Assembly: GCA_964415805.1 (NCBI GenBank)
Contig: CAYQBQ010000002.1
Location: 1 to 33,387, forward strand
DNA length: 33,387 bases
Source of the DNA: an uncultured Clostridium sp.
GTDB lineage: Bacteria > Bacillota > Clostridia > TANB77 > CAG-508
Reading direction: 5' to 3'
Part shown: in pieces, positions 1 to 23,212 of the stretch
Layout of the letters: the number at the start of each line of letters is the position of its first letter
Position numbering within the stretch: the first letter of the stretch is position 1
The notes under the pieces: generated by a model
What the model saw: the letters and a program-made list of their open reading frames with translations, nothing else
Database searches by the model: none
What the model was told of the DNA's origin: nothing
Made by a program: the position numbers and the translations under genes

Positions 1-52
1 CCCATGATTCCACCTTGAGAGGGTGGCGTCTTAACCGCTTGACCAAGGGGCC
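1..52 (-). tRNA. tRNA-Glu (anticodon CUC), 3' part cut by the window edge
   Basis: Reverse complement reads GGCCCCTTGGTCAAGCGGTTAAGACG-CCACC-CTCTCAA-GGTGG-AATCATGGG. Acceptor and D-arm are typical of bacterial tRNA-Glu. The 5-bp anticodon stem is CCACC/GGTGG and the loop is CT-CTC-AA. The T-arm runs off the window. Confidence 0.85.
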
Positions 53-68
53 ATAAGTAACTTTAATA

Positions 69-97
69 TTTATACCATTTTTTCTTTATTTAGTCAA
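69..97 (-). promoter_or_regulatory. sigma-A type promoter for the tRNA-Glu gene
   Basis: Minus strand reads TTGACT, a 17-nt spacer, then TGgTATAAA (extended -10). It ends 16 nt upstream of the mature tRNA 5' end. Confidence 0.5.
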
Positions 98-105
98 GCA
101 GATTT

Positions 106-1005
106 TTATAAATCTTTGAAACTTTCATTCGAATTTTCTTGTTGTTTATCTTTATTTTTGTTATTGTATATCATATACATTTCTTCGTCTTTCTCTGTCA
201 TATTAGTTTTAAAATTATTTATATTGTAATCACTAACAAATTGTTCATGAGAATTTATTTGTTGTATATTCTCTTGTTTGCCTTCAGTTAACATTTTGAC
301 TTTCTTTCTTGAGAAAATATTTTTAGTTTTATTAAATATATTAGTTAATTTTTCTTTTCTTTCAACTTTTTTTACATATCTGTTTACATTTTTTTCTACT
401 GGCTTTAATAACTTATCTATTTCTTTATCATCTTTATATAGAAATCTATCATATAATTCTTCAAATGTATTTTCTTTACCAAAATAATTTAAGAAATCTT
501 GTATAAATTTAATATCATTATTTATATATATTTGCATAAATATATTGGAATCTTTGGTATATTTAATCATCATTGGTTCTAATTTTGCAAATAATTTGTG
601 TCCTTCGATATAATGTCTTGGCTCTTCTCCACTAATTTTAGATGTCAAATAATCTGTCATTCCTTCATTTATTTGTATTCCAAACCCCTTCTCTCTATTT
701 CCTGCTATTCCATTTATTGTTCTATGTCCATTACTATCAAATTTACTAGAAATTGTATGCATTACTTCATGTATTACTGTATGTGCTGTTGCATCTGGTC
801 CTATATAAGATTCTCCGTTTCTGTTAAATCCTTCTAATATACCATAATCATCGTAATTGTTACCATATGCACTAATAAATTCTTCTTTATTAGTATATAC
901 ATGTATTTTTTTAAATGCTTTTTCTATTTTTTCTGGATTAATGTACAGCATTAATTCAGAATTATATATTTTATTCTTTGCATCTTGTACTAAATTATAA
1001 TTCAT
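106..1005 (-). CDS. Hypothetical HExxH protein (putative gluzincin-like metallopeptidase) with a Lys/Asn/Glu-rich C-terminal tail
   Basis: 299-aa ORF. It has the motif VIHEVMHT followed 30 residues later by INEGMTDY, an HExxH...NExx arrangement. No signal peptide is visible. GGAG sits 9 nt upstream of the ATG, and the gene starts 6 nt after the mrnC stop. Confidence 0.6.
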   Translation of the reverse strand: MNYNLVQDAKNKIYNSELMLYINPEKIEKAFKKIHVYTNKEEFISAYGNNYDDYGILEGFNRNGESYIGPDATAHTVIHEVMHTISSKFDSNGHRTINGIAGNREKGFGIQINEGMTDYLTSKISGEEPRHYIEGHKLFAKLEPMMIKYTKDSNIFMQIYINNDIKFIQDFLNYFGKENTFEELYDRFLYKDDKEIDKLLKPVEKNVNRYVKKVERKEKLTNIFNKTKNIFSRKKVKMLTEGKQENIQQINSHEQFVSDYNINNFKTNMTEKDEEMYMIYNNKNKDKQQENSNESFKDL

Positions 1006-1011
1006 ACAATA

Positions 1012-1404
1012 TTACTCCTTTTCTAGTATTTCTTTTAGTCTATCATTTTGTTTGGTTAGATACAAGTACCCAATTAAAGCTTCAAAAGCGGTTGAATACA
1101 TATAATCTTGAACATTTGCATTTTTAGGTAAATGATGATTTTCAGCATTTCTTCCTCTTCTTACTATATCTTTCTCTTTTTCGGTTAATTCTTCATATAT
1201 ATTTTTTAATGTTTCTGCTTGTGCTTTAGCTTTAACATGCTTTATAGCTTCAATGTGTAAAGCATGTGGTTTTAATTTAGTTTCATTTACCAATTTTGTT
1301 CTTATATAGAGTTCATAAACACAATCTCCTACATATGCCCATGTTAATGGTGGCATCAAGTTTACTTCTTGTTCATCTTTTTTTATTTCTATAAATTCGT
1401 TCAT
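1012..1404 (-). CDS. mrnC: Mini-ribonuclease 3 (Mini-III)
   Basis: 130 aa. The N-terminus LTWAYVGDCVYELYIR and the C-terminal AFEALIGYLYL are typical of Mini-RNase III. An AGGGAAG Shine-Dalgarno sequence is present. Confidence 0.85.
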   Translation of the reverse strand: MNEFIEIKKDEQEVNLMPPLTWAYVGDCVYELYIRTKLVNETKLKPHALHIEAIKHVKAKAQAETLKNIYEELTEKEKDIVRRGRNAENHHLPKNANVQDYMYSTAFEALIGYLYLTKQNDRLKEILEKE

Positions 1405-1427
1405 TTTCTTCCCTTCATTTTATTCTT

Positions 1428-2387
1428 TTATTGTAATTTTGGACGTTCTATTGTTATTTTTCCTAATTTTCCATTTTTGAATTCATCTAATATTAATCTT
1501 GATGTTTTTTCTTCATCTACTCTTCCTCCAGCCATTATGCATCCTCTTTTTTTACCTATTTCAAGCATTATTTCGTAAATATTGTTGTTTTCTGGTTGGT
1601 CTTGTCCTAATATGTTTTCTATGTATTCTTCATCTAATTTGTATCTCTCATATAATTTTTTTCTGTAGTTTTCTAATAAAAGTTTTGTTAATTGATATGC
1701 TATTTCTATCTTGTCTAATATTTCTTCTTTTATTGAGCCTGTGAAACATAAATGTAATGCTACTTCTTCACTTTCAAATTTTGGCCATAACACACCTGGT
1801 GTATCTAATAATTCTATTTTTTCATTTATTCGTATCCATTGTTTTTGTTTTGTTACTCCTGGTTTATTTCCTACTCCTGCTGTTGTTCTTTTTGATATTC
1901 TGTTTATAAATGATGACTTTCCTACATTTGGTATTCCTAGTATCATTGCTCTTATTCTTCTTCCTGTTCTTCCTTTTTCAGCATGTGCATCTAAGTCTAC
2001 TTTCATTATTTTTTCTATTTCTCTAATACATTCATCTATTCCTCTTCCAGAATTTGAATCTACTAATACTGCTGGAATGTTTTTGTTTTTGAAGTATTCT
2101 ACCCATAGTTTGTTTTGTTTGTCGTCTGATAAGTCACATTTGTTTAGTACTATTATTTTCTTTTTGTTTTTTGTTATTTCTGCTATGTTAGGGTTTTGGC
2201 TTGATATTGGTATTCTTGCGTCTAATAGTTCTATTACTATGTCTATTAGTTTTAGGTCTTGTATTATTTGTTTTTTTGTTTTTGCCATATGCCCTGGGTA
2301 CCAGTTGATTCCTACTTTTGAAAACCTTTCTTGATTATCATTATTTTTCTTTTCTTGCCTCATTTTTCTTTTTTGATACATATCCAT
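1428..2387 (-). CDS. rbgA: Ribosome biogenesis GTPase A (YlqF/RbgA)
   Basis: Carries INWYPGHMAKTKK, the circularly permuted GTPase motifs (LNKCDL ... GIPNVGKSS ... DTPG), and a C-terminal helical domain. The track start is a GTG. I chose the ATG (MDMYQ...) 12 nt downstream, which lies behind GAAGGTG. The basic N-terminal extension leaves the start uncertain. Confidence 0.85.
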   Translation of the reverse strand: MDMYQKRKMRQEKKNNDNQERFSKVGINWYPGHMAKTKKQIIQDLKLIDIVIELLDARIPISSQNPNIAEITKNKKKIIVLNKCDLSDDKQNKLWVEYFKNKNIPAVLVDSNSGRGIDECIREIEKIMKVDLDAHAEKGRTGRRIRAMILGIPNVGKSSFINRISKRTTAGVGNKPGVTKQKQWIRINEKIELLDTPGVLWPKFESEEVALHLCFTGSIKEEILDKIEIAYQLTKLLLENYRKKLYERYKLDEEYIENILGQDQPENNNIYEIMLEIGKKRGCIMAGGRVDEEKTSRLILDEFKNGKLGKITIERPKLQ

Positions 2388-2497
2388 TTTAATTTTCACC
2401 TTCTTCTTTTACATCTATATCCGTAATTTTGATTTCTTAAACTAGGTTCTACTGCTTAAATACTACAATCTGTTACATTCCTTCTTTATATTTTTTT

Positions 2498-2977
2498 CTA
2501 CATTGTTCTATAATTGTTTTTGTCAGCTCTATCATCTAACTTTCTATCAAACTCTTCGTTTTTATAAAACCAATCTGTTTTTTTATCTGTAGGATTTTGC
2601 TTTCTATTTTTATCTAGTAATAAATCTATTAAAACAGCCAATGGTAAAATTATTCCTAATATAGAAAACATTAATTGTGTGTTTTGGGCTAAAGTTAATG
2701 TTTCATTGTTTGATATTATATTTAATTTATTTGTTATATCCCCTCCAAAATAGATTGCGTGCAATGTAAGGTATAACAAGCTTCCTACTAATTTTCTTTT
2801 TACTATTAACACTAAGCATAATAAGGTTGCAAATAATATTGCAATTTCAAATGTTTCATTCATTGGTACCATTCCCATAAAATCTTTTCCCATTTGTGAC
2901 ATCATTGTAACTATTATTCTTACTATCCAGAATACTATCATAAACATTACTAATAAATATGTTGAAAATTTTTTCAT
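2498..2977 (-). CDS. Hypothetical integral membrane protein (about 4 TM segments)
   Basis: The ORF has four hydrophobic segments. The GAAGGAGGAA Shine-Dalgarno sequence lies inside the track's first 5 codons, so the start was moved to the ATG of MKKFSTYLL. Confidence 0.55.
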   Translation of the reverse strand: MKKFSTYLLVMFMIVFWIVRIIVTMMSQMGKDFMGMVPMNETFEIAILFATLLCLVLIVKRKLVGSLLYLTLHAIYFGGDITNKLNIISNNETLTLAQNTQLMFSILGIILPLAVLIDLLLDKNRKQNPTDKKTDWFYKNEEFDRKLDDRADKNNYRTM

Positions 2978-3042
2978 ATCTTCCTCCTTCATTTTATCTA
3001 AAAAATATTACTTCATTATTTTATTTAAATTTAATTTCTGTT

Positions 3043-3069
3043 AAAAAGGGGCGTCTCTTTTGACACCCC
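3043..3069 (-). terminator. Rho-independent terminator after the DUF1292 gene
   Basis: The minus-strand RNA forms GGGGUGUC-aaaaga-GACGCCCC (one G-U pair) followed by UUUUU. Confidence 0.7.
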
Positions 3070-3092
3070 CCTAACTCCACTTTTATTTTTTA

Positions 3093-3401
3093 TTAGTCAA
3101 CAAAATCAAAATCGTCTTTAAATTTTTCTTTGAATATTTCAAATACTTTATTTAATGTATCTTCATCTTCTACACTTACATATGATTCTTCTTCTGATTC
3201 TTCATCATCACTATCTTCTACTTTTAATATTACTACTTCTCCTTCATCTTCTTCTCCCTCTTCTGTGACTGGTAATAATACTACATATTCTTCATCGTCT
3301 AGTTCTATTAAATCTAAAAATTCGAATTTAACTTCATTTCCATCTTCATCATTTAATATTACTATGTTATCTAATTCTTGTCCTTCATAATTTTCATCCA
3401 T
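3093..3401 (-). CDS. DUF1292-family small acidic protein
   Basis: 102 aa and extremely acidic, with the core pattern DEDGNEVKFEFLDLIELDDEEYVVLLP typical of DUF1292. It has the usual position after ruvX. Confidence 0.75.
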   Translation of the reverse strand: MDENYEGQELDNIVILNDEDGNEVKFEFLDLIELDDEEYVVLLPVTEEGEEDEGEVVILKVEDSDDEESEEESYVSVEDEDTLNKVFEIFKEKFKDDFDFVD

Positions 3402-3535: not shown

Positions 3536-3952
3536 TTATTTATTTTTATTTATATATGTTTCTAAAATATATACTGCAGATATAGTATCTACAATATCAC
3601 GTTTTTTATTCTTATTAATATCCAAAAAATTCATAGTTTTATGTGCTGCAACAGTTGTTAATCTTTCATCTACGGTCTCTATTGTAACTTTATTATATTT
3701 ACATTTCAATTTGTGTATAAATTGTTCTGTAACTTCTGCTCTTACTGTTTTCTCGCCCTTGAGATTTAGTGGCATTCCAACCACTATTGTATCCACTTCA
3801 TATTTAGATAATATTTCATCTAATCTTTTTAATACAATTTTATCAGAGCCATTTCTTTGTATTGTCTCTAGTCCTTGAGCAGTAAAATTTAATGGGTCTG
3901 TAATCGCTATTCCAACACGTGCATCCCCATAATCAATTCCTAGTTTTCTCAT
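3536..3952 (-). CDS. ruvX: Putative pre-16S rRNA nuclease / Holliday-junction resolvase-like protein YqgF (RuvX)
   Basis: 138 aa. The N-terminus LGIDYGDARVGIAITD and the overall RNase H-like pattern match the family. It starts 2 nt after the ireB stop. Confidence 0.85.
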   Translation of the reverse strand: MRKLGIDYGDARVGIAITDPLNFTAQGLETIQRNGSDKIVLKRLDEILSKYEVDTIVVGMPLNLKGEKTVRAEVTEQFIHKLKCKYNKVTIETVDERLTTVAAHKTMNFLDINKNKKRDIVDTISAVYILETYINKNK

Positions 3953-3954
3953 AA

Positions 3955-4215
3955 TTAATCCTCTAAGTCTAACCCTATATAACTTTTTACCATTTTTTCT
4001 AATAGTTCATCTCTTTCTATTGTTCTTATTTTATTTCTTGCGTCATTGTAACTTGTTATATATGTAGGGTCTCCTGATAATATATATCCTACTATTTGGT
4101 TTATAGGATTGTATCCTTTTTCTGTTAAAGATTCATATACATCTTTTAATATTTCTTTTGCTTTTGTGTTCTCTTCTCTTTCAACTTGAAAGCTCATTGT
4201 TTTGTCAAAATCCAT
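3955..4215 (-). CDS. ireB: IreB-family regulatory phosphoprotein (UPF0297)
   Basis: 86 aa. The motif [22 protein letters not shown] is characteristic of UPF0297/IreB. Confidence 0.85.
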
Positions 4216-4242: not shown

Positions 4243-5322
4243 TTATATATTTGTAATGTCACTTTCGTTTATATCTGCATTGTCTAAATATTCTTCTTGT
4301 TTTTTTAATATTTCTTCTAATCCAGTTCCTTTATAATATGTTGATATTGTAAAGTTTAATCTTGGAAATGCGCTTATTTTTTCATTTTCTTCAGAAATTA
4401 TTTCTGTTTCTTCTATTTTGTCTTTTAAATCATTTATATATTCTGCAACACCATCTATCTCAACTCCAGAGAACGCAATAACAAATTTTGGTCCCATATA
4501 TCTTACAAAAACATACTGTTCAGATATATTTTCTTTAATATATTTACTTATTTTTTCTATTACTTCATTTCCTAATTCTCTTGAGCATTTATGATTTATT
4601 TCTTCCAGGTTTGTTATTCTAAACATACATATTGTTGATGTTGTATATTGATCTATGATTTTTCTTCCTTCTCCATATAGATATTCTTCTGAATATAATC
4701 CTGAATATAAATCTTTCCTTACTATAGTTTCAAGTGTTTTTTGATGTACTACTGTTTTTAAAACAGATACTATATTATCTTTTATTACCTCTAAAACGGT
4801 TGTATCTACATTGTCAAAATCATGAGGTGTTCCACTTTCTATAATCCAATATCCTATATATACATTATCTATATATAATGGGAAAAATATTGCTGATTTT
4901 GCTCTTCCAAATTCCATTTGTTGATATGGCAATCTTTCTTGTTCATTATTTACAGTAACATATTTAGGGGTTGCTTGTGCTATACTATCTTTGAACATAT
5001 CTACATCCTGAAGTGATTTTAATGCATCCCAATGTCTTTCATCTACATTTGATGCTTTTATTTCATATTCTGCTCCATTAAAAACAACTATAGTAGAATA
5101 TTTTATTTCATATTTTTCTATTAAGATTTCATTTACTTTCTTTATTTTATCATCTACTGTAGATGTTTCGCCTATTGCACTCATAAAATCTTGTACTACT
5201 GATAAATTATTTATCTTTTGATTGATATTTTTATACGTTTGTATCTTTTTATGTATGCTAAGGTTATATATTATTAGCCCTAAAACTGCTATTATTAATA
5301 TTATCACTATTACTACTAACAC
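4243..5322 (-). CDS. Membrane-anchored sensor-like protein with a degenerate (probably inactive) GGDEF domain
   Basis: 359 aa with a GTG start behind AGGGGGGG and one N-terminal TM segment. A middle domain of about 150 aa may be GAF-like. The C-terminal region aligns by eye to GGDEF: DLYSGLYSEEYL resembles DxLTGLxNRRxF, and ICMFRITNLEEIN replaces the D-x-D metal site. VRYMGPKFVIAF replaces RxGGDEF. Confidence 0.6.
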   Translation of the reverse strand: MLVVIVIILIIAVLGLIIYNLSIHKKIQTYKNINQKINNLSVVQDFMSAIGETSTVDDKIKKVNEILIEKYEIKYSTIVVFNGAEYEIKASNVDERHWDALKSLQDVDMFKDSIAQATPKYVTVNNEQERLPYQQMEFGRAKSAIFFPLYIDNVYIGYWIIESGTPHDFDNVDTTVLEVIKDNIVSVLKTVVHQKTLETIVRKDLYSGLYSEEYLYGEGRKIIDQYTTSTICMFRITNLEEINHKCSRELGNEVIEKISKYIKENISEQYVFVRYMGPKFVIAFSGVEIDGVAEYINDLKDKIEETEIISEENEKISAFPRLNFTISTYYKGTGLEEILKKQEEYLDNADINESDITNI

Positions 5323-5345
5323 TTTTTTCCCCCCTATTGTTATCT

Positions 5346-7652
5346 TTAATATTTATTTTTCATTTGATTAAGTGTTGAATTCATACTAGGTGTAAATCCA
5401 TTAGTTTCTACTCTTGGTGGTACATATGTTGATTTTGCAGATACCAATGGATATACCATGTTTGATAATTCATTTAGTATTTGTACCATGTTTTTTGGAT
5501 ATCCTTTAATTGAAACTTCACAATTTATTATATTTTCTAGATACCTTGTATACACCTCGTCATTAAATGGAACTGTTATATATCTTATTGTGTTTTTATC
5601 AAATAACTCTGTCATAAATGACATTGCTGGATCATTGTAATATGCCATTCCGCCTATAATAGTTTTATCATTAACTCCTCTAACTTTTACTGCCTTATTT
5701 AATATAACTCTTAATTTGCTTTGATTTAATATATCTTTTGATTTTAATTCTCTTAAAAAAGCTGTTAAAGGTTGAATTGTTAACACATCAAAAGATTGAA
5801 CTAAATATATTTCTTGAGTTTTTTCAAAATACTCTAATGGTGTGTAAAAATCACAATCAATTAAAACTAATGAATGTTTTTTCAATAATGTTTGTAATAT
5901 TGTTCCTGCGTTTTCTATTCCTTCTGTTTCTTCTGGTAATGATGTATATACAGTTAAATTTTTGTTTACTTGTATTCCATCTGCTACACCTTGTAATAAG
6001 TTATTTATGCTGTCCATTGCTGTTTTTCTTAAATTTTCTTCATTTTTTGTATATATATAATATGAATTTCTATTTTTTGTTGTATCTAGTATTGCTGTAT
6101 CTATACCCATTTTAGATGTTATTTCTGCTAAATTATTTACTATAAATGATGTTCCATTTTTACTTGTTCCTATAAAACATGCTACTTTTTTATCTGAAGT
6201 TAATAGTCTTGATATATCAACATCTTCATATGATTGATTTATATTCTGTAAGCTTGTCTCTTGTTGGTATCCATAATTGTTATAATTTGTATTTGTTTGT
6301 TGACTATTTTTTGTTTCAAACTCTGGCATCTTTGTTTCTTCTTGTTCATCTTCAAATCCTGGTAATATTGTTTCATTTTCTTCAAATCCTGGTAATATTG
6401 TTTCTTCTTGTTCATCTTCAAAACCTGGTAATAAAACATCTTTTTCTTCTTCCTCTTCAAATCTATGTGAAACATTGTTATTATCTTCTTCATCTAATCC
6501 TGGTAAAACCATAGATTCCTGTTCTTCAGGCACAGGATTTTTTCTAGGTCTACCCCTTCCTCTTTTTGGAGTTTCTACTGTGTTTTGTTCTGGTACGGGA
6601 TTCTTTCTAGGTCTACCCCTTCTTCTTTTTGGTTCTTCAATAACTGGTTCTATTACATCTTTATTGTTTTGTTGTTCCATAATTTTCTCTGGTTCCTCTT
6701 TTATTTCGTCATCAAACATAGGTCCAATTTTTCTTACTTCAGTTACAACCTTATCATTTTTTATTGTTCCAATTGGTTTTATTTCACTCTTTGTCTTTGC
6801 CATTTTTCTAGTACTATTCATATTCACTGAAGATGGTATAACTACTGGTTTTGAAAGTATTCTTTCTCTGTTACTTGTATTTAATAATTTGCCACTAGTT
6901 CCATCTGTTTGTTCCTTCTTTATACTTTTTGATCTTAGGTTGTCAGATATTTTACTATTGAAAGATATTATTTGTTGATATTTTGATGATTTTTCTTCCA
7001 ATACAGCTCTAACGTTTAATGGTAAAAATTTTGTTATTATTCTTAGTTGAGCATCATTATACTGTGATGCAATATTGTCAAAACTTTCTACATATTTTTT
7101 TTCATCTTTTCCAAGTCTTTTGTAATGTGCTAAAATATTTTGTATTTCCACTTCACTAACATCATTCTCATTTTCAGATTGATATGACACATCTTCAGAA
7201 TCAATTTTATAATATGATTTTGCTTCTTTTTTTACTCTTGGTTTATTTAATAATTTACATACATTATCTACACTTCTATCGTTCCCTAATAATGCATTAT
7301 AAATTCCTATTCCAAATAATTTTACTAACATTTCCTCGCTCTTTTCTCTTCTATCAGAGCAAATCAATATAATTGGAATATCTTCTCCTTTTAAATTAGA
7401 TGCTTCATCACTAATACTATCCAACTTATCAAATATAAATTTGTCTATTTGATCATATTGTGTATTAGTAAACGCTTGCAACTCTTCACTTATTACTACC
7501 CTATCATAATTTTTGTCCTTTTGTAATTCTTTTAATATTGCATTGAAGTAATAAACATTTTTATACGAAATTATTTCTTTATATTCTTTTTGATATCTTT
7601 TTACTATTGATTCTGATATCTCCTCATTACTTACAGCAAATAAAACTTTCAT
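5346..7652 (-). CDS. Multidomain hypothetical protein: receiver-like N-terminal domain, two AT-hooks, acidic LPGFE repeats, and a ParA/MinD/CpaE-like C-terminal domain with a degenerate P-loop
   Basis: 768-aa ORF behind a GGAAGGGGG Shine-Dalgarno sequence. The N-terminal 140 aa or so have a flavodoxin/CheY-like beta-alpha pattern (KVLFAV..., RVVISEE..., IPIILICS...). KRRRGRPRKNPVPE and KRGRGRPRKNPVPE lie in the middle. The C-terminus has KKVACFIGTSKNGTSF and LVLIDCD, reminiscent of Walker A and B in ParA-like ATPases. Confidence 0.6.
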   Translation of the reverse strand: MKVLFAVSNEEISESIVKRYQKEYKEIISYKNVYYFNAILKELQKDKNYDRVVISEELQAFTNTQYDQIDKFIFDKLDSISDEASNLKGEDIPIILICSDRREKSEEMLVKLFGIGIYNALLGNDRSVDNVCKLLNKPRVKKEAKSYYKIDSEDVSYQSENENDVSEVEIQNILAHYKRLGKDEKKYVESFDNIASQYNDAQLRIITKFLPLNVRAVLEEKSSKYQQIISFNSKISDNLRSKSIKKEQTDGTSGKLLNTSNRERILSKPVVIPSSVNMNSTRKMAKTKSEIKPIGTIKNDKVVTEVRKIGPMFDDEIKEEPEKIMEQQNNKDVIEPVIEEPKRRRGRPRKNPVPEQNTVETPKRGRGRPRKNPVPEEQESMVLPGLDEEDNNNVSHRFEEEEEKDVLLPGFEDEQEETILPGFEENETILPGFEDEQEETKMPEFETKNSQQTNTNYNNYGYQQETSLQNINQSYEDVDISRLLTSDKKVACFIGTSKNGTSFIVNNLAEITSKMGIDTAILDTTKNRNSYYIYTKNEENLRKTAMDSINNLLQGVADGIQVNKNLTVYTSLPEETEGIENAGTILQTLLKKHSLVLIDCDFYTPLEYFEKTQEIYLVQSFDVLTIQPLTAFLRELKSKDILNQSKLRVILNKAVKVRGVNDKTIIGGMAYYNDPAMSFMTELFDKNTIRYITVPFNDEVYTRYLENIINCEVSIKGYPKNMVQILNELSNMVYPLVSAKSTYVPPRVETNGFTPSMNSTLNQMKNKY
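6318..6443 (-). repeat. In-frame tandem repeats encoding four (I/L/M)(L/P)(P/E)GFE-acidic units
   Basis: The 24-nt string ttcaaatcctggtaatattgtttc is identical at 6351-6374 and 6381-6404. The 22-nt string tttcttcttgttcatcttcaaa is identical at 6335-6356 and 6401-6422. The peptide reads LLPGFEDEQEETILPGFEENETILPGFEDEQEETKMPEFE. Confidence 0.85.
6529..6632 (-). repeat. 63-nt-period duplication encoding two AT-hook motifs
   Basis: The 41-nt blocks 6529-6569 and 6592-6632 are near-identical. Both contain ...ttctaggtctaccccttc.tctttttgg, which encodes PKR(R/G)RGRPRKNPVPE. Confidence 0.85.
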
Positions 7653-7655
7653 TTG

Positions 7656-8063
7656 TTACCCCCTTCCAAATTTTACAAACATTGCAAATGCTAATGGTAA
7701 AATTTGGCATATAATTAATAATGTAACGAATGTTACAATTAATCCCATTCCTTTTTCTAATGTATCTAGTTTTCTTATACCTATTATGTATTGATGTATA
7801 GCTCCAATTGCTATTCCTAAAAAGCAAAATGGTATACTGTATATTCTAACTAGATTTAAAATATATGCAACTAATCCATATGCATCAGAGCCATATTTTT
7901 CTTGATAATCTTGAAGTGATTTTGTTTGTGTTTCTTTTATTTCCACAAGTTTACTTTCTGTTTTTTCATCTATTGCTTTTTCCGCAGAATATACTTTATT
8001 TGTACATGTAAATATTCCTAATATTAATATTGACATTGTAAATATTGCTATTATTTTTTTCAT
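7656..8063 (-). CDS. Small secreted/membrane protein (signal peptide plus two C-terminal TM helices)
   Basis: 135 aa behind a GGAAGGAG Shine-Dalgarno sequence. The signal-like N-terminus is MKKIIAIFTMSILILGIFTCTNKVYSA. A hydrophilic stretch of about 40 aa follows, then two hydrophobic helices split by RKLDTLEKG. It stops 3 nt before the 768-aa gene. Confidence 0.6.
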   Translation of the reverse strand: MKKIIAIFTMSILILGIFTCTNKVYSAEKAIDEKTESKLVEIKETQTKSLQDYQEKYGSDAYGLVAYILNLVRIYSIPFCFLGIAIGAIHQYIIGIRKLDTLEKGMGLIVTFVTLLIICQILPLAFAMFVKFGRG

Positions 8064-8126
8064 TATTTTAGCTCCTTCCTTATATTCTTACAATCGCTTA
8101 TTTTTTTACGTTTTCTTTACTTTTAT

Positions 8127-8155
8127 ATCATACAATAACTTCTAAAAAATATCAA
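8127..8155 (-). promoter_or_regulatory. Candidate sigma-A promoter of the 135-aa/768-aa/GGDEF-like operon
   Basis: Minus strand reads TTGATA, a 17-nt spacer, then TATGAT. The -10 ends about 64 nt upstream of the ATG at 8063. Confidence 0.4.
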
Positions 8156-8185
8156 GGAATTTTGCAAAAATTTTACAAATTATTA

Positions 8186-8208
8186 TTAAAATTGTTACAG
8201 TTCAGTGA
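8186..8208 (+). promoter_or_regulatory. Conserved box TTAAAATT-GTTACAGTTCAGTGA (copy 1 of 2)
   Basis: The second copy at 21898-21922 is identical except for one transition and a 2-nt insertion. There it coincides with the -10 and initial transcribed region of a predicted promoter. Confidence 0.3.
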
Positions 8209-8312
8209 AGAATTATCCTCTCACTTGACTATACCAAAAAATTTAAAATTCAGAAGCTAACATATTATCTATGTTTTCTCCTGAATTTTTTGAATACTAA
8301 TATATCTATGTA

Positions 8313-12742: not shown

Positions 12743-14497
12743 TTATAGTGTTTTTTCTTCTTCATCTTTTTGTTCTTTATCAGGAACAAAATTTCCGTTC
12801 ATTTTTATTCCTGTTTTTCCACTTTCTAAATCTACATATTTATGTGGATATATTTGAGATATTTTTTTACATTTCTTTGTAACTAAATTACCTAAATGTT
12901 TAGTATAATTATATTTTAGATCAACAGGATTAATCGTTTTATTCTTATATATTATCTCAGATTCTCTTATATCTGTTAAAGGCATTAATATTTTTGTTGT
13001 TAAATTTCTACCTTTATATCTCATATCGTTATATCCTTCGTACATTGGTATAACTGCACTGTTTTTTAATGTTTTAAAAAATTCTATTATATCCTCTTTA
13101 TCTGCATGCAGTCTTAGTGGCATATTAAAACCAGGGTAATCAATTCCTAATAAAATTTTTTTCTTATCTATCTGTGCTTCTTGTGGGTTTTCTGGCATAT
13201 ATCCCCAATTTGTTATTTTTCTATTATAATCTATTTGTAACAATACTTCTTTTAGCATATTACTTTTTGACAAATATATTATATCAATGTTATTTCGACT
13301 TGATTGTCCAGATAATAGATCTTTATCAAAATTGTTCTCACTTTCTGGTAATATTGTATTGAAATAATCTGTATATTCTTCTTTTAATTTAGGGCTAATA
13401 TCTTTCATATTCATAACTGAATATTTATAATTTTCAGTTTCATAAAATTTTGTAATTTGTCCTTTTATTTTATTTGAAATATTATCACATAATTTCATTT
13501 TTAATATAGTTTTTATTATTTGTTCATCACTCAAACAATCTTCATAGTCCTCGTTTTCTAATTTTCCCCATAAATTTAAAGTATCTGCAATAAATATTGC
13601 TTCTTTTACATTCTCGATTCTTTTTGTAAATCTATTTTGCCAAAATGCATTTAATACGGACAATTTTTCTACATCCAAGGTATCTATATATTCATCTGTA
13701 AATATATTTTCTAATCCTATATCTTTATCATCTTTTTCTGTTCTTAATTTATATTGCATTTTTGGCATTGATAACTCTTTATAGTCCTCGTTTTGTTGTT
13801 TCAATGGTTCTTCTAATAAATCATATTTTTTTAAAAACCTTCCTGATAGTTTAAAACATTTCTTTTCCAACTCAAATAACGTATTTTTAAGGTAATCTTT
13901 TCTATACTCTATATATCTATTTAAACTTTCTCTTTCATCATCAGTCATATATATTTTTGTATACTGAATAGCATCTTTAAGTTCAGGATCTTCTGCAATT
14001 TGTTTTTTGAATTTTCTTTTTTCATTTTCGTCTTTTGGATTTATTATTCTTTCTATGAAATTTTTTATTTTTTTATCTATTTCTTCTTTTCTTATGCTTT
14101 GTACCATTAATTTCACTTCAAATTCAGCACATTCTTCTTCATTACCTTTTATTTTGTATTCTTCATCCGATAAATTAATTTTTTTCAAATCTTCATCTTT
14201 TATTTTATTATAAATTTTATCTACCAAACGTGGATTTGCGCTTAATATTTGTAATATATTTTCTTGTCTTTGTATTGAACCTGTTCCTGATACCTTTGTA
14301 TATTCTTCTATTTCATTATCAAATTCATCATATATAACATCTCTAATTTCAATATTTTCATCGCCAAAATATCTTTTTAATTTCACAATGTACTTATGTA
14401 AAACCTTTAAATTTTTTCTTGCATATATTATCTGTTTTTGTTGATTATCTATTGATTTTTTTGCTTTTTCCAGTTCCTTTTTAAAATTTATATTCAT
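12743..14497 (-). CDS. Hypothetical protein, 584 aa, no recognisable domain
   Basis: Long uninterrupted ORF behind a GAGAGG Shine-Dalgarno sequence. The N-terminal half is Lys/Glu-rich and helical. The C-terminal third is more complex (NWGYMPENP, GIDYPGFNMPLRLHADKEDIIEFF, PMYEGYNDMRYKGRN). No TM segment or signal peptide is visible. Confidence 0.6.
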   Translation of the reverse strand: MNINFKKELEKAKKSIDNQQKQIIYARKNLKVLHKYIVKLKRYFGDENIEIRDVIYDEFDNEIEEYTKVSGTGSIQRQENILQILSANPRLVDKIYNKIKDEDLKKINLSDEEYKIKGNEEECAEFEVKLMVQSIRKEEIDKKIKNFIERIINPKDENEKRKFKKQIAEDPELKDAIQYTKIYMTDDERESLNRYIEYRKDYLKNTLFELEKKCFKLSGRFLKKYDLLEEPLKQQNEDYKELSMPKMQYKLRTEKDDKDIGLENIFTDEYIDTLDVEKLSVLNAFWQNRFTKRIENVKEAIFIADTLNLWGKLENEDYEDCLSDEQIIKTILKMKLCDNISNKIKGQITKFYETENYKYSVMNMKDISPKLKEEYTDYFNTILPESENNFDKDLLSGQSSRNNIDIIYLSKSNMLKEVLLQIDYNRKITNWGYMPENPQEAQIDKKKILLGIDYPGFNMPLRLHADKEDIIEFFKTLKNSAVIPMYEGYNDMRYKGRNLTTKILMPLTDIRESEIIYKNKTINPVDLKYNYTKHLGNLVTKKCKKISQIYPHKYVDLESGKTGIKMNGNFVPDKEQKDEEEKTL

Positions 14498-18644: not shown

Positions 18645-19295
18645 CTACACTTCTGTATAGTCACTTGGAATATTGAAATAACTGTCATTTACATTTCCAT
18701 AACTTATATCTATTTTAATTAATTCTTGATTTTCTCCAACAATTGTTTTTATATAAGAAAGCTCTCCATTTTTGTAATATAATCTAGTTTTTGCATACTC
18801 TAGATTATTTACTGACAATTCATCATCAAATAGAAATCCTTGAAAATTCGGTATTTCCTCATATTTATATTGTTTTCCATTTATATTTTCTTTACCAATT
18901 TTTAAATTTGCTGTATCTATTTCTTCAAATTGTTGTTTTATTTCAGTTAGTATTTCATCATTGTTTTCATATTTATAATAGTTTTTTTCACTATCATCTA
19001 AATAATACGTATCTCCATTTTTTACAATATATTTTTTTGTTTTACCATTTGTTGTTATTTCTTTATATGCTTGGCTTCCTTTTATCATTATAATAATTTT
19101 ATTTTTTTCGTCAACTGTTCTTGTATAAGTTATTTCATTTGTATTATTTATTTTTTCATACATTTTGGATGTTAAAGTATTTTCTTGATTATCTGTATTT
19201 TTGTTCTTTATTGAAAATACAATTAATCCTATAATAATTGCTAATACCACTATAGCTATAATTATAAAAATAATATTTCTCTTTGACTTTGACAT
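18645..19295 (-). CDS. Hypothetical membrane-anchored extracytoplasmic protein
   Basis: 216 aa behind an AAGGGAG Shine-Dalgarno sequence. It has an N-terminal TM anchor followed by a Tyr/Asn/Lys-rich, beta-type sequence. No motif was recognised. Confidence 0.55.
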   Translation of the reverse strand: MSKSKRNIIFIIIAIVVLAIIIGLIVFSIKNKNTDNQENTLTSKMYEKINNTNEITYTRTVDEKNKIIIMIKGSQAYKEITTNGKTKKYIVKNGDTYYLDDSEKNYYKYENNDEILTEIKQQFEEIDTANLKIGKENINGKQYKYEEIPNFQGFLFDDELSVNNLEYAKTRLYYKNGELSYIKTIVGENQELIKIDISYGNVNDSYFNIPSDYTEV

Positions 19296-20575: not shown

Positions 20576-21136
20576 TTATCCTATAAGACTTTTTATTTCC
20601 TCATCATTTTTCAATTCTTTGCTTAAGAATTGAAATGCTCTTTTATCTTGTTTTATGGCAATCTCTGCAATTTCTTTATCATTTCTTAATCTTAGACTTG
20701 CATATTTTACAATTAAACCTTTATTTTCAACAGCAGCCTTAACTACTTCTTTGTCATCTCTCAACTTTTTACTTGCATAATATAGTGTTTGTCCATATTC
20801 TTTTACACTTGCCATTATGACATCTTTATCAGCCTTTAATCTTTCAGATACATAGCATGCAGTCCATGGAGCTTTATTTATTGCAAGTAATGCAATTTGT
20901 TTATTATCCCTAAGTCTATCAGATACAAATTCCATTGTTTCTCCATCTTGTTCTAATGCTGTTTTTACAATTTCCTCATCATCTTGAAATTCTGGTATCG
21001 CAAACTCTAATAACTTTCCTTTATTTTGTACCGCTTTCAAGACATATTCTCTATTATCTTTATTTGCCTTCATCTCTGTTACATCTGGATCTTCCATTAA
21101 TTTTCTTTCCTTTCGACATTTTTCTACATATTTCAT
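20576..21136 (-). CDS. DUF4116 repeat protein
   Basis: 186 aa built from repeated units of about 30 aa, of the type (A/V)(V/L)xQ(N/D)Gxxhx(F/Y)(A/V)Sxxh(R/K)(D/N)(D/N)KE(I/V)hxxA(I/V). The Shine-Dalgarno sequence at the first ATG is weak, so the start is uncertain. Confidence 0.65.
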   Translation of the reverse strand: MKYVEKCRKERKLMEDPDVTEMKANKDNREYVLKAVQNKGKLLEFAIPEFQDDEEIVKTALEQDGETMEFVSDRLRDNKQIALLAINKAPWTACYVSERLKADKDVIMASVKEYGQTLYYASKKLRDDKEVVKAAVENKGLIVKYASLRLRNDKEIAEIAIKQDKRAFQFLSKELKNDEEIKSLIG

Positions 21137-21983: not shown

Positions 21984-22856
21984 ATGAAATTAGAATATAT
22001 TATAGAAAATAATAAATCAAATATAAATCAAATATTGCAAAATGAACTAAGTATATCTTCCAGATTACTTTATAAACTAATTAAAAGCCAACGAATTTTA
22101 TTAAATGGAAATATTTGTGATACCAGAAATCATTCTAATGTTGGTGATACATTAATAGTAGATTTTAATTATGATGAAGATAATTCTAATATTGTTCCTA
22201 CTAAAATGGATTTGGATATTATATATGAAGATGAATGGCTGTTGATTGTTAACAAACCTGCTGGAGTAGCAATTCATCCATCCATTTTACATTATTCTGA
22301 TTCTTTATGTAATGGTATTAGATTTTATTTTGATTCTATTGGTTTAAAGAAAAAGATTAGACCTGTAAATAGACTTGATTTAAATACTTCTGGTTTAGTA
22401 ATTTTCGCAAAATGTGAATATATTCAAGAATGTTTAATTTCTCAAATGAAAGATCATTTGTTTAAAAAAGAATATTTAGCTATATGTGACGGAATTTTTG
22501 AAAATAAATATGGTACCATTAATTTACCAATTGCTAGAAAAAAAGATAGTATTATTGAAAGATGTATTTCTGATGATGGTCAACCTTCTATTACTCATTA
22601 CGAAGTTTTAAAAGAATTTAGTAATTATAGTTTAGTTAGATGTATTTTAGAAACTGGTAGAACTCATCAAATTAGGGTTCATATGTCTGCTATTTCTCAT
22701 CCTCTAATTGGTGATAGTTTATATGGTTCTCTTTCTGATTTAATTGATAGACAGGCTTTGCATTGTTATAAATTAAAATTTTTACATCCTATCACAAAAA
22801 AGTTTATGGATTTTTGTGGCGAAATACCACTAGATTTTAAAAAATTAGAAGAGTAA
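21984..22856 (+). CDS. RluA-family 23S rRNA pseudouridine synthase (RluD-like, S4 domain plus catalytic domain)
   Basis: Carries VNKPAGVAIHP, RPVNRLDLNTSGLVIFAK and the GRTHQIRVH motif. An AAGAGG Shine-Dalgarno sequence is present. Confidence 0.85.
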   Translation: MKLEYIIENNKSNINQILQNELSISSRLLYKLIKSQRILLNGNICDTRNHSNVGDTLIVDFNYDEDNSNIVPTKMDLDIIYEDEWLLIVNKPAGVAIHPSILHYSDSLCNGIRFYFDSIGLKKKIRPVNRLDLNTSGLVIFAKCEYIQECLISQMKDHLFKKEYLAICDGIFENKYGTINLPIARKKDSIIERCISDDGQPSITHYEVLKEFSNYSLVRCILETGRTHQIRVHMSAISHPLIGDSLYGSLSDLIDRQALHCYKLKFLHPITKKFMDFCGEIPLDFKKLEE

Positions 22857-23196
22857 ATCTGTAAGCCGGGTTCTGTCTTTTAAAATAGTCATTTATCTAG
22901 GATATATATTGCTATATATCTCAAGCCACGCAATTCAAGAAGGTGCCGAGCAGGCTTAATCTTCTTTATTAGGTGTTGCTCCAGATGGGGTTTACACAGC
23001 CCTCTATGTCACCATAAAGGCGGTGAGCTCTTACCTCGCCTTTTCATCCTTACCCTTAAAAAGGGCGGTTATTTTCTGTTGCACTTTCCTTAGGGTCACC
23101 CCCACTAGACGTTATCTAGCATCTTTGCTCTGTGGAGCCCGGACTTTCCTCTCGTAGTTCCTTTCGGAATTTACCAGCGACTATTCAATTTACTCT
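22850..23196 (-). ncRNA. rnpB: RNase P RNA, bacterial class A
   Basis: The minus strand contains GAGGAAAGTCCGGGCTCCACAGAGC, GTGCAACAGAAAATAACCGCC, GGGTAAGGATGAAAAGGCGAGGTAAGAGCTCACCGCC, GTAAACCCCATCTGGAGCAA, CTAGATAAATGACTAT and ACAGAACCCGGCTTACAG. These occur in the same order as in E. coli M1 RNA. P1 pairs AGAGTAAAT at 23196-23188 with ATTTACTCT at 22858-22850. Confidence 0.93.
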
Positions 23197-23203
23197 ATTT
23201 GAA

Positions 23204-23212
23204 ATTATATCA
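23204..23212 (-). promoter_or_regulatory. Extended -10 promoter element (TGATATAAT) for rnpB
   Basis: TATAAT lies at 23209-23204 on the minus strand. It is preceded by the TGA stop codon of the upstream CDS, which supplies the TGn. The predicted start site, 7-8 nt downstream, coincides with the P1 5' end. Confidence 0.45.

Follow-up and report, generated by a model that had tools for sequence, protein, structure and literature searches.

Related systems

TadZ and CpaE combine an atypical receiver (REC) domain, a lysine-less ATP-binding, dimerizing ATPase domain, and a C-terminal amphipathic helix (PMC13170226, PMC10482377), and TadZ of E. rectale has lost both Walker-A lysines (PMC10482377). 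In the window analyzed here, a stretch of 33,387 nt from an uncultured Clostridium sp., the modeled architecture of the product of one gene, gene B, is that of this Tad-pilus localization factor. Other described systems share parts of the locus. AT-hooks next to an acidic stretch are known from Myxococcus CarD and eukaryotic HMGA, and BcsE carries degenerate REC and GGDEF domains and binds c-di-GMP through an RxxD I-site. Within the Bacillota, Noc (ParB-like) and RacA (HTH plus coiled coil) serve as DNA-membrane tethers.

Organization of the locus

The preliminary description of the window listed three minus-strand genes, separated by gaps of 3 and 23 nt and lying 27 nt from ireB, with a candidate promoter ahead of them. 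The ORF check found these genes as described, and the promoter site exists. The locus contains the following features:

8127-8155, minus strand: σ70-type promoter-like element ahead of gene A (TTGATA, 17-nt spacer, TATGAT; 10/12 matches in the scan)
7656-8063, minus strand: gene A, ORF of 135 aa
5346-7652, minus strand: gene B, ORF of 768 aa
4243-5322, minus strand: gene C, ORF of 359 aa with a GTG start
3955-4215, minus strand: ireB, IreB/ReoM family phosphoprotein (PF06135, E = 1.9e-39; NCBIfam equivalog, 2.8e-40)
3536-3952, minus strand: ruvX (YqgF; PF03652, 1.4e-39)
3093-3401, minus strand: DUF1292 gene, a member of the conserved block (PF06949, 2.7e-18; synteny)

Across related loci, the median gaps are 3 nt (A-B), 24 nt (B-C), and 21.5 nt (C-ireB). 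Strong Shine-Dalgarno sequences were found 5' of genes B, C, and ireB, and that of gene B lies within the last codons of gene A. Although promoter-like sites as a class were not above chance in the scan (52 found versus 48.8 expected), the site ahead of gene A falls in a block, CTTG[AC]TATTTTT...TTATTGTATGATATA, that is kept when 60 upstream regions are aligned, some of them from loci with a different gene upstream of A. The scan found no terminator-like sites between 2400 and 9100. Based on the short gaps, the gene B Shine-Dalgarno sequence inside A, the terminator-free interval, and the promoter kept in 60 loci, the arrangement of A, B, C, ireB, ruvX, and the DUF1292 gene behind one conserved promoter fits a single operon.

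Distribution and gene order

Wherever the contig reaches far enough, the order two-TM protein, large protein, IreB, RuvX, and DUF1292 holds in 80 related species and in 7 distant loci (31-39% identity). The neighborhood check on co-occurrence, which covered representatives of these species and distant lineages, found the genes in all 80 of the related species. The three-gene unit proposed in the preliminary description is intact in the close relatives, where A, B, and C occur together in 80/80; however, gene C is present in 4 of the 7 distant loci. The deep, invariant core is the two-TM gene A plus gene B, and some distant lineages lack gene C. Wherever the flank is long enough, ireB comes after B or C. 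The linkage to ireB-ruvX, previously described as a local graft, instead extends to the entire family within the limits of sampling.

Even at 31-39% identity, genes A and B stay joined across a 3-nt gap, despite repeated rearrangement upstream of A. The genes found there vary (CarD, SecDF, glucosaminidase, or PBP5); in most relatives, the upstream neighbor encodes a G5-SH3-glucosaminidase or a PBP5-type carboxypeptidase. Synteny is also conserved 3' of ireB (x164, a YlqF-like GTPase, and Mini-III RNase).

All sources of the family are MAGs of uncultured Clostridia, and hundreds of gut Clostridia species carry the gene set. The family has no named members and no Pfam model. The absence of CpaF, TadB/C, pilin, and secretin genes noted earlier was borne out, as genes for Tad, type IV pilus, or type IV secretion systems were found nowhere in the window. 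Likewise, >85 loci examined over ~±6 kb yielded no pilus genes (CpaF, TadB/C, prepilin peptidase, Flp, or any other), and the conserved block contains no ParB-like or MinE-like activator gene.

Gene B protein

Gene B has >6792 homologues, which form 626 clusters at 50% identity. The window protein has no match in Pfam, NCBIfam, or PDB sequences, and no profile assigns it to any characterized family, in agreement with the earlier remark that the locus resembled no named system. The preliminary description had read the protein as a receiver-like domain, two AT-hooks, LPGFE repeats, and a ParA-like domain; AlphaFold2 (AF2) models, Foldseek, and alignment recovered each of these parts. The structural check resolved the folded ends as a pseudo-receiver and a ParA/MinD-fold domain. 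The following features were assigned:

7242-7652, minus strand: residues 1-137, pseudo-receiver (REC-fold) with an invariant Glu56 at the phospho-acceptor position (AF2, Foldseek)
6957-7232, minus strand: residues 141-232, helical subdomain, possibly HTH-like (AF2 helices, Foldseek)
6597-6626, minus strand: residues 343-352, AT-hook 1, RRRGRPRKNP (sequence, alignment)
6534-6563, minus strand: residues 364-373, AT-hook 2, RGRGRPRKNP (sequence, alignment)
6312-6524, minus strand: residues 377-447, acidic repeat region with five [LM]P[GE][FL][DE] copies (sequence, alignment)
5421-6221, minus strand: residues 478-744, ParA/MinD-fold (SIMIBI) domain (AF2, Foldseek, Pfam CbiA)
6147-6170, minus strand: residues 495-502, variant P-loop GTSKNGTS (hhalign to MinD, survey of 202 relatives)
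5349-5396, minus strand: conserved C-terminal peptide FTPSMNSTLNQMKNKY, candidate membrane-targeting or docking helix (motif conservation)

The N-terminal domain (AF2 pLDDT 88) is not detected by the Pfam Response_reg model; its lowest-rmsd Foldseek matches are the N-domains of CpaE (4myr, 4n0p, and 4dad; TM ~0.7, rmsd 3.7-4.0 Å). Nearly all family members carry [SG]E[ED]L after strand 3 of this domain.

Between the two folded domains lies a disordered insert of ~240 residues, in which two AT-hooks are followed by the acidic LPGFE stretch. The two RGRPRKNP copies are invariant across 31 aligned homologues, and both are present in 80/80 related loci. At the scale of the family, the hooks are confined to one large clade (56/83 full-length cluster representatives) and absent from 27/83; therefore, hook-based DNA binding cannot be the family-wide function of B. 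Copy number of [LM]P[GE][FL][DE] ranges from 2 to 8 among relatives, and a DNA tandem repeat at 6332-6433 (unit 30-36 nt) underlies the LPGFE repeats. Residues 377-476 contain 29 D+E versus 4 K+R. CarD and HMGA similarly place RGRP AT-hooks beside a strongly acidic segment; however, B is a ParA/MinD-family protein into which the hook module is inserted, LPGFE is repeated in its acidic part, and it has no CarD_TRCF domain.

For the C-terminal domain (AF2 pLDDT 91.9), the top Foldseek match was ParA 3ea0 (E = 1.8e-9), with further matches to MinD 4v02, BcsQ (MinD-like; ranks 5 and 12), FleN, and FlhG (overall E 1e-9 to 1e-6); MinD, FlhG, and FleN share its fold at TM 0.63-0.72. Pfam CbiA matched 15/25 family members (best E = 3.9e-6), and matches to CbiA or MipZ in many members are a further likeness to MinD. 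Unlike MinD, B has extra N-terminal domains and the insert, and it adjoins no minC or minE gene. In the hhalign alignment, T496 and T501 correspond to MinD K11 and K16, such that both ParA/MinD lysines are replaced, as is the equivalent of Asp40. The P-loop of 202 relatives reads G[TA]xKxGT[ST], with Lys before the final [ST] in 0/202, whereas Lys498 is near-invariant (198/202). Asp523, Asp599, and Asp601 are invariant, and the Walker B and switch aspartates are retained; together with Lys498, these three invariant residues could support real ATPase activity.

The C-terminal peptide occupies the place of the membrane helix of CpaE and MinD. Its motif, F-x3-M-x2-TL-x2-M-[KR], occurs in 55/83 full-length representatives; the hydrophobic-moment score of the window sequence was z = 1.2, in a test that did not pick out the MinD control either. 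In a distant clade, the C-terminus is a basic stretch plus GLFG or FFG, which we take to resemble the membrane-targeting sequence of MinD.

The preliminary comparison with TadZ/CpaE remains the best available. Shared features are the atypical receiver followed by an atypical ParA/MinD-fold domain, the position of the C-terminal peptide, and, in E. rectale TadZ, the loss of both Walker-A lysines (PMC10482377). B differs in its disordered insert, its extra helical subdomain, its own P-loop (GxxKxGT[ST]), and its neighbors, which are never tad genes and always ireB-ruvX. Noc and RacA offer a purely functional analogy, as a DNA-binding element and a membrane-binding helix (predicted in B) occur in one protein; however, the folds are unrelated, and no specific DNA site is known for B.

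Gene A and gene C proteins

The earlier reading of gene A as a secreted two-TM protein was upheld. The gene A product is predicted to be a secreted or anchored two-TM hairpin protein, with an N-terminal signal sequence (~residues 1-27; conserved VY[SA]|A site) and, based on hydropathy, hydrophobic segments at residues 64-96 and 101-134. The predicted order is signal peptide, variable ectodomain, conserved juxtamembrane helix, TM1, short basic loop, and TM2, which bears a Q[IV]LPL[IA]FA motif. Gene A has no significant Pfam match, and its 4022 relatives are all unnamed. Homologues adjoin B upstream in distant loci (in L081, with 32% identity and E = 5e-24).

The gene C protein likewise agrees with its first reading as a single-TM protein with a GGDEF domain lacking signature residues. 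A single TM segment at the N-terminus (residues 1-27) is followed by a GAF-like region (~40-185) and then by a degenerate GGDEF domain (~195-350; Pfam 2.3e-8, with an NCBIfam GGDEF match too). Aligned to solved cyclases, the protein has MGPKF where diguanylate cyclase 6zxb has GGEEF, and RIT in place of the metal-binding DxD. Divergent homologues keep the degenerate motif as RY[MLF]GPKF. GAF matches were weak (GAF_2, E = 0.15, in 3/7 members; PDB 4g3v and 3rfb, E ~0.4-0.5). Genes A, B, and C share with BcsE-BcsQ-BcsR a set of degenerate modules and a small partner protein; however, the domains are divided among the proteins in another way, the locus has no cellulose synthase genes, and, unlike in BcsE, no RxxD I-site was seen at its usual position upstream of the motif in gene C.

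Possible function of the locus

Our preferred reading, which we hold tentatively, is that B is a scaffold resembling TadZ/CpaE, for the most part without catalytic activity, that links the membrane to AT-rich DNA and works with cell-envelope or division control; we infer that the locus functions as a membrane-tethered, nucleoid-binding positioning or signaling module. B would form a dimer on the cytoplasmic face of the membrane, held by its C-terminal helix, and in the hook-bearing clade only, its AT-hooks would grip AT-rich chromosomal DNA. The acidic LPGFE repeats might recruit partners multivalently or fold back onto the basic hooks to regulate them. Because B has neither the signature lysine nor that of the P-loop, and no equivalent of MinD Asp40, it would act as a scaffold and not as an ATP-driven motor; because the Walker B and switch aspartates and the family-specific lysine are kept, it may still bind nucleotide to dimerize, like E. 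rectale TadZ. The co-translated protein A and protein C, which lacks catalytic residues, would be membrane-side partners or sensors, albeit with a predicted cytoplasm-facing loop in A of just ~12 residues, which leaves little surface for contacting B. The obligatory ireB linkage and the frequent peptidoglycan enzymes directly upstream in relatives suggest that the module acts to coordinate the position of the nucleoid or membrane with division or growth of the cell wall; the ireB/ruvX linkage may also be mere co-expression with housekeeping genes, without shared function.

Of the alternatives, we consider it least probable that B is a genuine TadZ/CpaE that localizes the machinery of a Tad (Flp) pilus, whose genes would lie in another part of the genome, with A as a pilin-like subunit. 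B has the three architectural features of CpaE/TadZ (PMC13170226), and Pfam T4SS_pilin (PF18895) weakly matched 3/7 members of the A family; however, these matches (best E = 0.0075) were below threshold and fell on hydrophobic segments, no pilus gene was found in the window or within the ~±6 kb covered in >85 loci, and the partner is always ireB-ruvX. Among the best 50 Foldseek matches of the C-terminal domain, there was no solved TadZ/CpaE ATPase-domain structure, and the B profile found no TadZ/CpaE sequence in the PDB, whose TadZ/CpaE chains have no sequence-level similarity to B. We also know of no TadZ with an AT-hook insert. It is unlikely that B is an active ParA-type positioning ATPase that dimerizes via the non-canonical K498 and moves cargo on a hook-bound nucleoid matrix, segregating or positioning it, with AT-hooks replacing the usual ATP-dependent DNA-binding surface. 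The ParA/MinD fold, the invariant switch and Walker B aspartates, and the conservation of K498 argue for such activity, as does E. rectale TadZ, which keeps ATPase activity without canonical lysines (PMC10482377). Nevertheless, both lysines and the Asp40 equivalent are replaced, the block lacks a ParB-like or MinE-like activator gene, and AT-hooks that bind constitutively would undo the switching of DNA binding by ATP on which ParA gradients depend.

Also unlikely, in our view, is that the main role of B is that of a regulator (transcriptional or nucleoid-associated), in which a pseudo-response regulator, an HTH-like subdomain, and AT-hooks control its own operon or many AT-rich promoters and the MinD-like domain serves for oligomerization only. 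Type Ia ParA proteins autoregulate via N-terminal HTH domains, B has AT-hooks, and full-length NarL, VraR, and RcsB (REC plus LuxR-type HTH) head the Foldseek list for the N-terminal 235 residues (E ~5e-4), but these alignments have an rmsd of 13-15 Å and TM ~0.4, and Pfam detected no HTH families in B. A regulator would also leave unexplained why the C-terminal peptide is conserved and why the partners are membrane proteins. Finally, it is very unlikely that A, B, and C are functionally unrelated neighbors that only operon inertia keeps together, in a lineage with slow rearrangement. Such inertia would agree with the conserved synteny 3' of ireB; however, the region upstream of A was repeatedly rearranged while the A-B junction persisted, and the gene B Shine-Dalgarno sequence lies inside A.

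Gene order and promoter

Gene A, which encodes a small protein with two transmembrane segments, is followed on the minus strand by gene B, encoding a TadZ/CpaE-like protein, by gene C, encoding a protein with a degenerate GGDEF domain, and by four further genes:

7656-8063, minus strand: gene A, open reading frame of 135 aa
5346-7652, minus strand: gene B, open reading frame of 768 aa
4243-5322, minus strand: gene C, open reading frame of 359 aa with a GTG start
3955-4215, minus strand: ireB, 27 nt after gene C
3536-3952, minus strand: ruvX, next after ireB
3093-3401, minus strand: DUF1292 gene, after ruvX
2498-2992, minus strand: gene for a 164-aa membrane protein with three transmembrane segments, directly after the DUF1292 gene

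The intergenic gaps measured from these reading frames (A-B, 3 nt; B-C, 23 nt; C-ireB, 27 nt) agree with those reported in the preliminary description. A strong Shine-Dalgarno sequence precedes each of B, C, and ireB, and that of B (GGAAGGGGG) lies inside the final codons of A, which suggests that translation of B is coupled to that of A. We found no terminator-like hairpin between positions 2400 and 9100, and an Rfam scan of the 249-nt region upstream of A identified no riboswitch or leader.

A candidate promoter had been proposed at 8127-8155, and a promoter-like site (TTGATA-17-TATGAT, 8155-8127, minus strand) is indeed present; however, it was one of 52 scan matches against a chance expectation of 48.8, so the scan by itself is uninformative, and it is conservation that backs the site. 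In an alignment of 60 upstream regions, the block CTTG[AC]TATTTTT...TTATTGTATGATATA is conserved while the flanking sequence has diverged, and the block is kept also in loci that have a different gene upstream of A. Because the block persists amid diverging surroundings, whatever the upstream gene, there is good comparative evidence that a real promoter heads the A-B-C-ireB block. Judged from sequence, the genes from A through ireB and ruvX have an operon-like organization behind this conserved promoter.

Distribution and synteny

Scanning one genome per GTDB species, we identified relatives of B in at least 492 species. The best 80 of these all derive from uncultured Clostridia or "Clostridium sp." metagenome-assembled genomes, obtained from the guts of humans (Hadza, Nepal), rabbits, goats, and mice. 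An exhaustive search of 1.84 billion cluster representatives returned 626 B clusters (50% identity) at E ≤ 1e-3, with identity down to 31%; all inspected clusters consist of an N-domain, a variable linker, and a C-domain, with lengths from 553 to 1434 aa.

The order A, B, C, IreB, RuvX, DUF1292, 164-aa membrane protein occurs in all 80 close loci as far as the contigs reach, with median gaps of 3 nt (A-B), 24 nt (B-C), and 21.5 nt (C-ireB). Synteny breaks upstream of A, and comparison of window positions 8064-8312 with the close loci places the breakpoint exactly at the A promoter. Upstream of A, the window carries CarD, dUTPase, SpoVS, and YmdB genes, one close locus (L001) carries genes for an HD protein, SecD, and SecF, and most other close loci carry a same-strand gene for a G5-SH3-glucosaminidase of about 410 aa. 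Distant loci often have a PBP5-type D-Ala-D-Ala carboxypeptidase or a glucosaminidase in this position.

Seven distant loci, in which B is 31-39% identical to the window protein, were informative. In six of them, a gene for a small protein with two transmembrane segments is followed by B, sometimes by a gene of the degenerate GGDEF type (~370 aa), and then by IreB and RuvX; DUF1292 is present in five of these six, and the sixth (L089) has the elongation-factor P gene after RuvX instead. The contig of another locus (L088) stops inside a C-like gene, ahead of any possible ireB. C is absent in three of the seven. Based on the synteny of the close and distant loci, the conserved core is A plus B, C is a clade-specific addition, and the linkage of B to ireB is family-wide. 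The co-occurrence elsewhere in Clostridia that the preliminary description had proposed to check is therefore seen for A, B, and C in the 80 close loci and for A and B in distant ones, but its view of the cassette as a graft onto ireB-ruvX does not hold, as the ireB linkage is ancestral. We also considered a local insertion or mobile-element origin and rejected it: G+C content is ~26% across the window and does not shift at the cassette, and the gene arrangement goes back to the ancestor of the family.

Two further observations concern these loci. On one contig (L082, positions 1-3144), a B gene represented by its C-terminal part (37% identical to window B) precedes a complete copy of 649 aa; this tandem pair indicates local duplication of the B family in at least one lineage. 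The 164-aa membrane protein has no Pfam match; it ends in a conserved C-terminal motif (TDWFY...ERELDERADKN) and is encoded in every one of the 80 close loci whose contig extends to this point, as well as in distant locus L083 (37% identity).

Gene B

The window B protein had no significant match in Pfam, NCBIfam, or, using phmmer, PDB sequences; profiles of either of its domains likewise found nothing significant among PDB sequences, and ten distant homologues had no Pfam match. In an alignment of 31 close homologues, two highly conserved ends (residues 1-240 and 478-768) flank a variable middle. The preliminary description had assigned to B a receiver-like domain, two AT-hooks, LPGFE repeats, and an atypical ParA-like ATPase domain, and each of these was recovered, the first and last as predicted folds.

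The C-domain, modeled with AlphaFold2 from 25 divergent sequences, the least similar at 31% identity, is predicted to adopt a ParA/MinD α/β fold (pLDDT 91.9). Foldseek aligned this model to 213 PDB structures at E ≤ 1e-3; the top match was the ParA-family ATPase 3ea0 (E 1.8e-9, TM 0.66/0.72), and MinD, BcsQ, FleN, FlhG, and HypB were among the other best matches. The Pfam family CbiA (MinD/ParA nucleotide-binding domain) was matched individually by 15 of the 25 family members (best E 3.9e-6), and MipZ by 6. The P-loop of window B, GTSKNGTS, departs from the canonical deviant Walker A motif, xKGGxxGK[ST]. Based on hhalign alignment to E. coli MinD, T496 corresponds to the signature Lys11, T501 to the P-loop Lys16, D523 to Asp38, and T525 to Asp40. 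The family loop reads G-[TA]-x-K-x-G-T-[ST], with Lys at the fourth position in 198 of 202 relatives and at the canonical GK[ST] position in none of the 202; D523 and a Walker B-type DxD (D599, D601) are invariant. Since both MinD lysines and the Asp40 equivalent are replaced, B is predicted to combine the ParA/MinD fold with loss of the canonical catalytic residues. According to PMC10482377 and PMC13170226, both of which cite Xu et al. (2012), the TadZ of E. rectale lacks both lysines and can nevertheless bind ATP and form dimers. That protein offers a precedent for a lysine-less ParA/MinD domain that binds ATP, and nucleotide binding by B is putative.

In the model of the N-domain (pLDDT 88), a receiver fold precedes a helical subdomain. 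Among the Foldseek superpositions of this model, those with CpaE N-domains were best (4myr, 4n0p, 4dad, and 4dn6; rmsd 3.7-4.0 Å, TM about 0.7), and Pfam Response_reg matched none of 28 family members. The acidic pocket of receivers is replaced: after strand 3, the phospho-acceptor Asp position is occupied by an invariant Glu (Glu56), and almost every member has the motif [SG]E[ED]L there.

Across the 31 close homologues, the variable middle holds two invariant AT-hooks (RGRPRKNP). Of 83 full-length cluster representatives, 56 have AT-hooks; all 80 close loci have two, and the distant B clade has none. The insert also contains acidic [IV]LPGF[ED] repeats in variable number, with two to eight LPGF-like copies in close relatives; the underlying DNA is a tandem repeat at 6332-6433 (period about 30-36 nt, 3 copies, 79% matches). 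The varying copy number among related species suggests frequent slippage or recombination at the repeat within B. The insert is bipolar, as residues 241-376 are net basic (32 K+R vs 20 D+E) and residues 377-476 strongly acidic (29 D+E vs 4 K+R). Its combination of basic AT-hooks and an acidic region recalls the layout of HMGA proteins and Myxococcus CarD.

At the C-terminus, 55 of the 83 full-length representatives end in F-x3-M-x2-T-L-x2-M-[KR]-x2-[YF]. In the most distant clade, the tail is instead basic and closes with GLFG, FFG, or GFW, which resembles the MinD membrane-targeting sequence (KKGFLKRLFGG). A C-terminal amphipathic helix is reported for CpaE (PMC13170226). Compared with shuffled sequences, the hydrophobic moment of the window tail gave z = 1.2 and the 55 motif-bearing tails a mean of 1.6, and the MinD control likewise failed to score; the test is non-discriminating at this tail length, so it is from position, conservation, and analogy that we infer that the C-terminal peptide of B may target the membrane.

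Comparison with TadZ/CpaE

TadZ/CpaE is the closest known protein to B, as both combine an atypical receiver lacking the phospho-acceptor Asp, and a lysine-less ParA/MinD domain, and B has a conserved C-terminal peptide at the position of the CpaE helix. TadZ/CpaE was the only known ParA/MinD branch with a receiver-like head and was regarded as dedicated to Tad pili. However, the tad locus that defines TadZ/CpaE is absent around B: neither the window, where the preliminary description had already noticed that Tad-type genes are missing, nor the flanks of >85 loci contain genes for CpaF, TadB/C, Flp, or prepilin peptidase. In addition, B has features beyond those of TadZ/CpaE (a P-loop variant of its own, an additional helical subdomain, and the insert with AT-hooks and acidic repeats), and it lacks sequence-level similarity to solved TadZ/CpaE chains. 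For these reasons, B should not be filed as TadZ; it represents a new family in the ParA/MinD superfamily with a TadZ-like build.

The relatives whose names were looked up are all called "MAG: hypothetical protein [Clostridia bacterium]." In the literature found on AT-hook ParA/MinD proteins, IreB-RuvX operons, and TadZ, the family is not described, and the TadZ papers concern TadZ/CpaE itself. The preliminary description had recognized no named system here, and we likewise found no profile family, annotation, or published description.

Genes A and C

In the A protein, a signal sequence (conserved site VY[SA]|A) and an ectodomain that varies among homologues precede a conserved juxtamembrane helix and a transmembrane hairpin, whose short, basic loop (IRKLDTLEKG) is the sole part predicted to face the cytoplasm. 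Homologues of A lie directly upstream of B even where B is only 33-34% identical (L081, 32% identity in A, E 5e-24; L083, E 9e-6), and at least 4022 proteins, none of them named, belong to the A family. We considered whether A is a VirB2/TrbC-type T4SS pilin. Three of seven members gave sub-threshold matches to PF18895 (best E 0.0075), the PDB profile matches were noise, and the window contains no T4SS genes; the pilin assignment was rejected and is kept as a weak lead only.

The C protein comprises a transmembrane segment, a region with weak though consistent hints of a GAF domain, which we call "GAF-like" only, and a GGDEF domain. The signature residues of this domain had previously been noted as lost; accordingly, in an alignment to 6zxb, MGPKF replaces GGEEF and RIT replaces the metal-binding DxD (DID), so that the GG[DE]EF active site and the metal-binding Asp are both lacking. 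No RxxD I-site occurs in the corresponding stretch, SEQYVFVRYMGPKF, at the usual I-site position upstream of the GGDEF motif. The degenerate motif is itself conserved, as RY[MLF]GPKF, in C homologues at 34-54% identity, which points to a retained non-catalytic role for C.

Proposed function

In bacteria, the ParA/MinD family organizes chromosomes as well as division sites and large machines. We tentatively favor, at somewhat less than even odds, a reading in which B forms dimers and serves, largely without catalysis, as a scaffold at the cytoplasmic face of the membrane. In the AT-hook clade it would hold AT-rich DNA, the LPGFE repeats might either mask the hooks or bring in a partner, A and C would be membrane-side partners or sensors, and the module would act with cell-envelope or division control. 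In Bacillota, peptidoglycan synthesis is controlled by IreB/ReoM, the substrate of the PASTA kinase. The window IreB has the N-terminal sequence MDFDKTMSF, whose threonine matches the PASTA-kinase phosphosite of ReoM/IreB; the retention of this context suggests that a PASTA-kinase pathway exists in this lineage. The proposed envelope or division role draws on IreB/ReoM biology, on this DKTM threonine, and on the peptidoglycan enzymes frequently encoded upstream.

Other readings were given lower probabilities. That B is an active ParA-like motor would fit its fold and its invariant aspartates, and is unlikely given the replaced lysines. A DNA-binding regulator of the pseudo-response-regulator type would draw on the receiver fold and on Foldseek alignments of full-length NarL, VraR, and RcsB to the N-terminal model; these alignments have high rmsd, the helical subdomain has no Pfam support as a helix-turn-helix, and we regard this reading as distinctly unlikely. 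Mere operon inertia would fit the synteny that is conserved downstream of ireB as well, and is very unlikely beside the persistence of A next to B in close and distant loci whose upstream region is rearranged. Finally, B could be a true TadZ serving a distant tad locus, as its architecture would allow; with its AT-hook insert, and no tad genes in any flank inspected, this is highly improbable.

A bolder form of the scaffold reading, unlikely as a whole, is that A-B(-C) is a hitherto unrecognized chromosome-membrane tether or nucleoid-occlusion-like system. It would consist almost wholly of pseudo-enzymes (pseudo-receiver, pseudo-MinD, and pseudo-GGDEF); a TadZ-like pilus-localization scaffold would have been exapted and would have gained eukaryote-style AT-hooks; the operon link would tie the tether to the PASTA-kinase/IreB cell-wall checkpoint; and in this large uncultured clostridial lineage the system would take the role of Noc, RacA, or Min components in model Bacillota.

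If B does tether DNA to the membrane, as in the favored reading, it would show how nucleoid position is coupled to envelope growth in a major uncultured lineage and would be a natural case of AT-hooks in bacterial cell organization. In this family, the TadZ/CpaE architecture is re-used outside a pilus context, with a DNA-hook insert and in a conserved block with the IreB cell-wall regulator. The family, which is large and found in abundant yet uncultured gut Clostridia (based on the best 80 of at least 492 species), merits a name and a Pfam entry even if the tether model is wrong.

Other features of the window

The remaining genes are housekeeping genes (CarD, dUTPase, SpoVS, YmdB, RNase Y, Der [EngA-type GTPase], PlsY, GpsA, PFK, and RNase P RNA), and no pilus or secretion genes occur anywhere in the window. 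The RNase P RNA (bacterial class A, 22846-23196, minus strand, 309 bits) fills the gap that separates a 304-aa open reading frame from a pseudouridine synthase gene in divergent orientation. That frame (23210-24124) is one of four sizeable minus-strand open reading frames without a Pfam match, the others encoding 299 aa (106-1005), 216 aa (18645-19295), and 584 aa (12743-14497, flanked by the RNase Y gene and an ABC-2 transporter pair). A partial tRNA at the window edge (1-52, minus strand) was detected by Rfam at 30.4 bits and was not called by ARAGORN. A minus-strand gene (20576-21136), flanked by those for phosphofructokinase and a Methyltransf_4 (TrmB-like) methyltransferase, encodes a 186-aa protein that consists of four DUF4116 repeats (E 4.6e-48).
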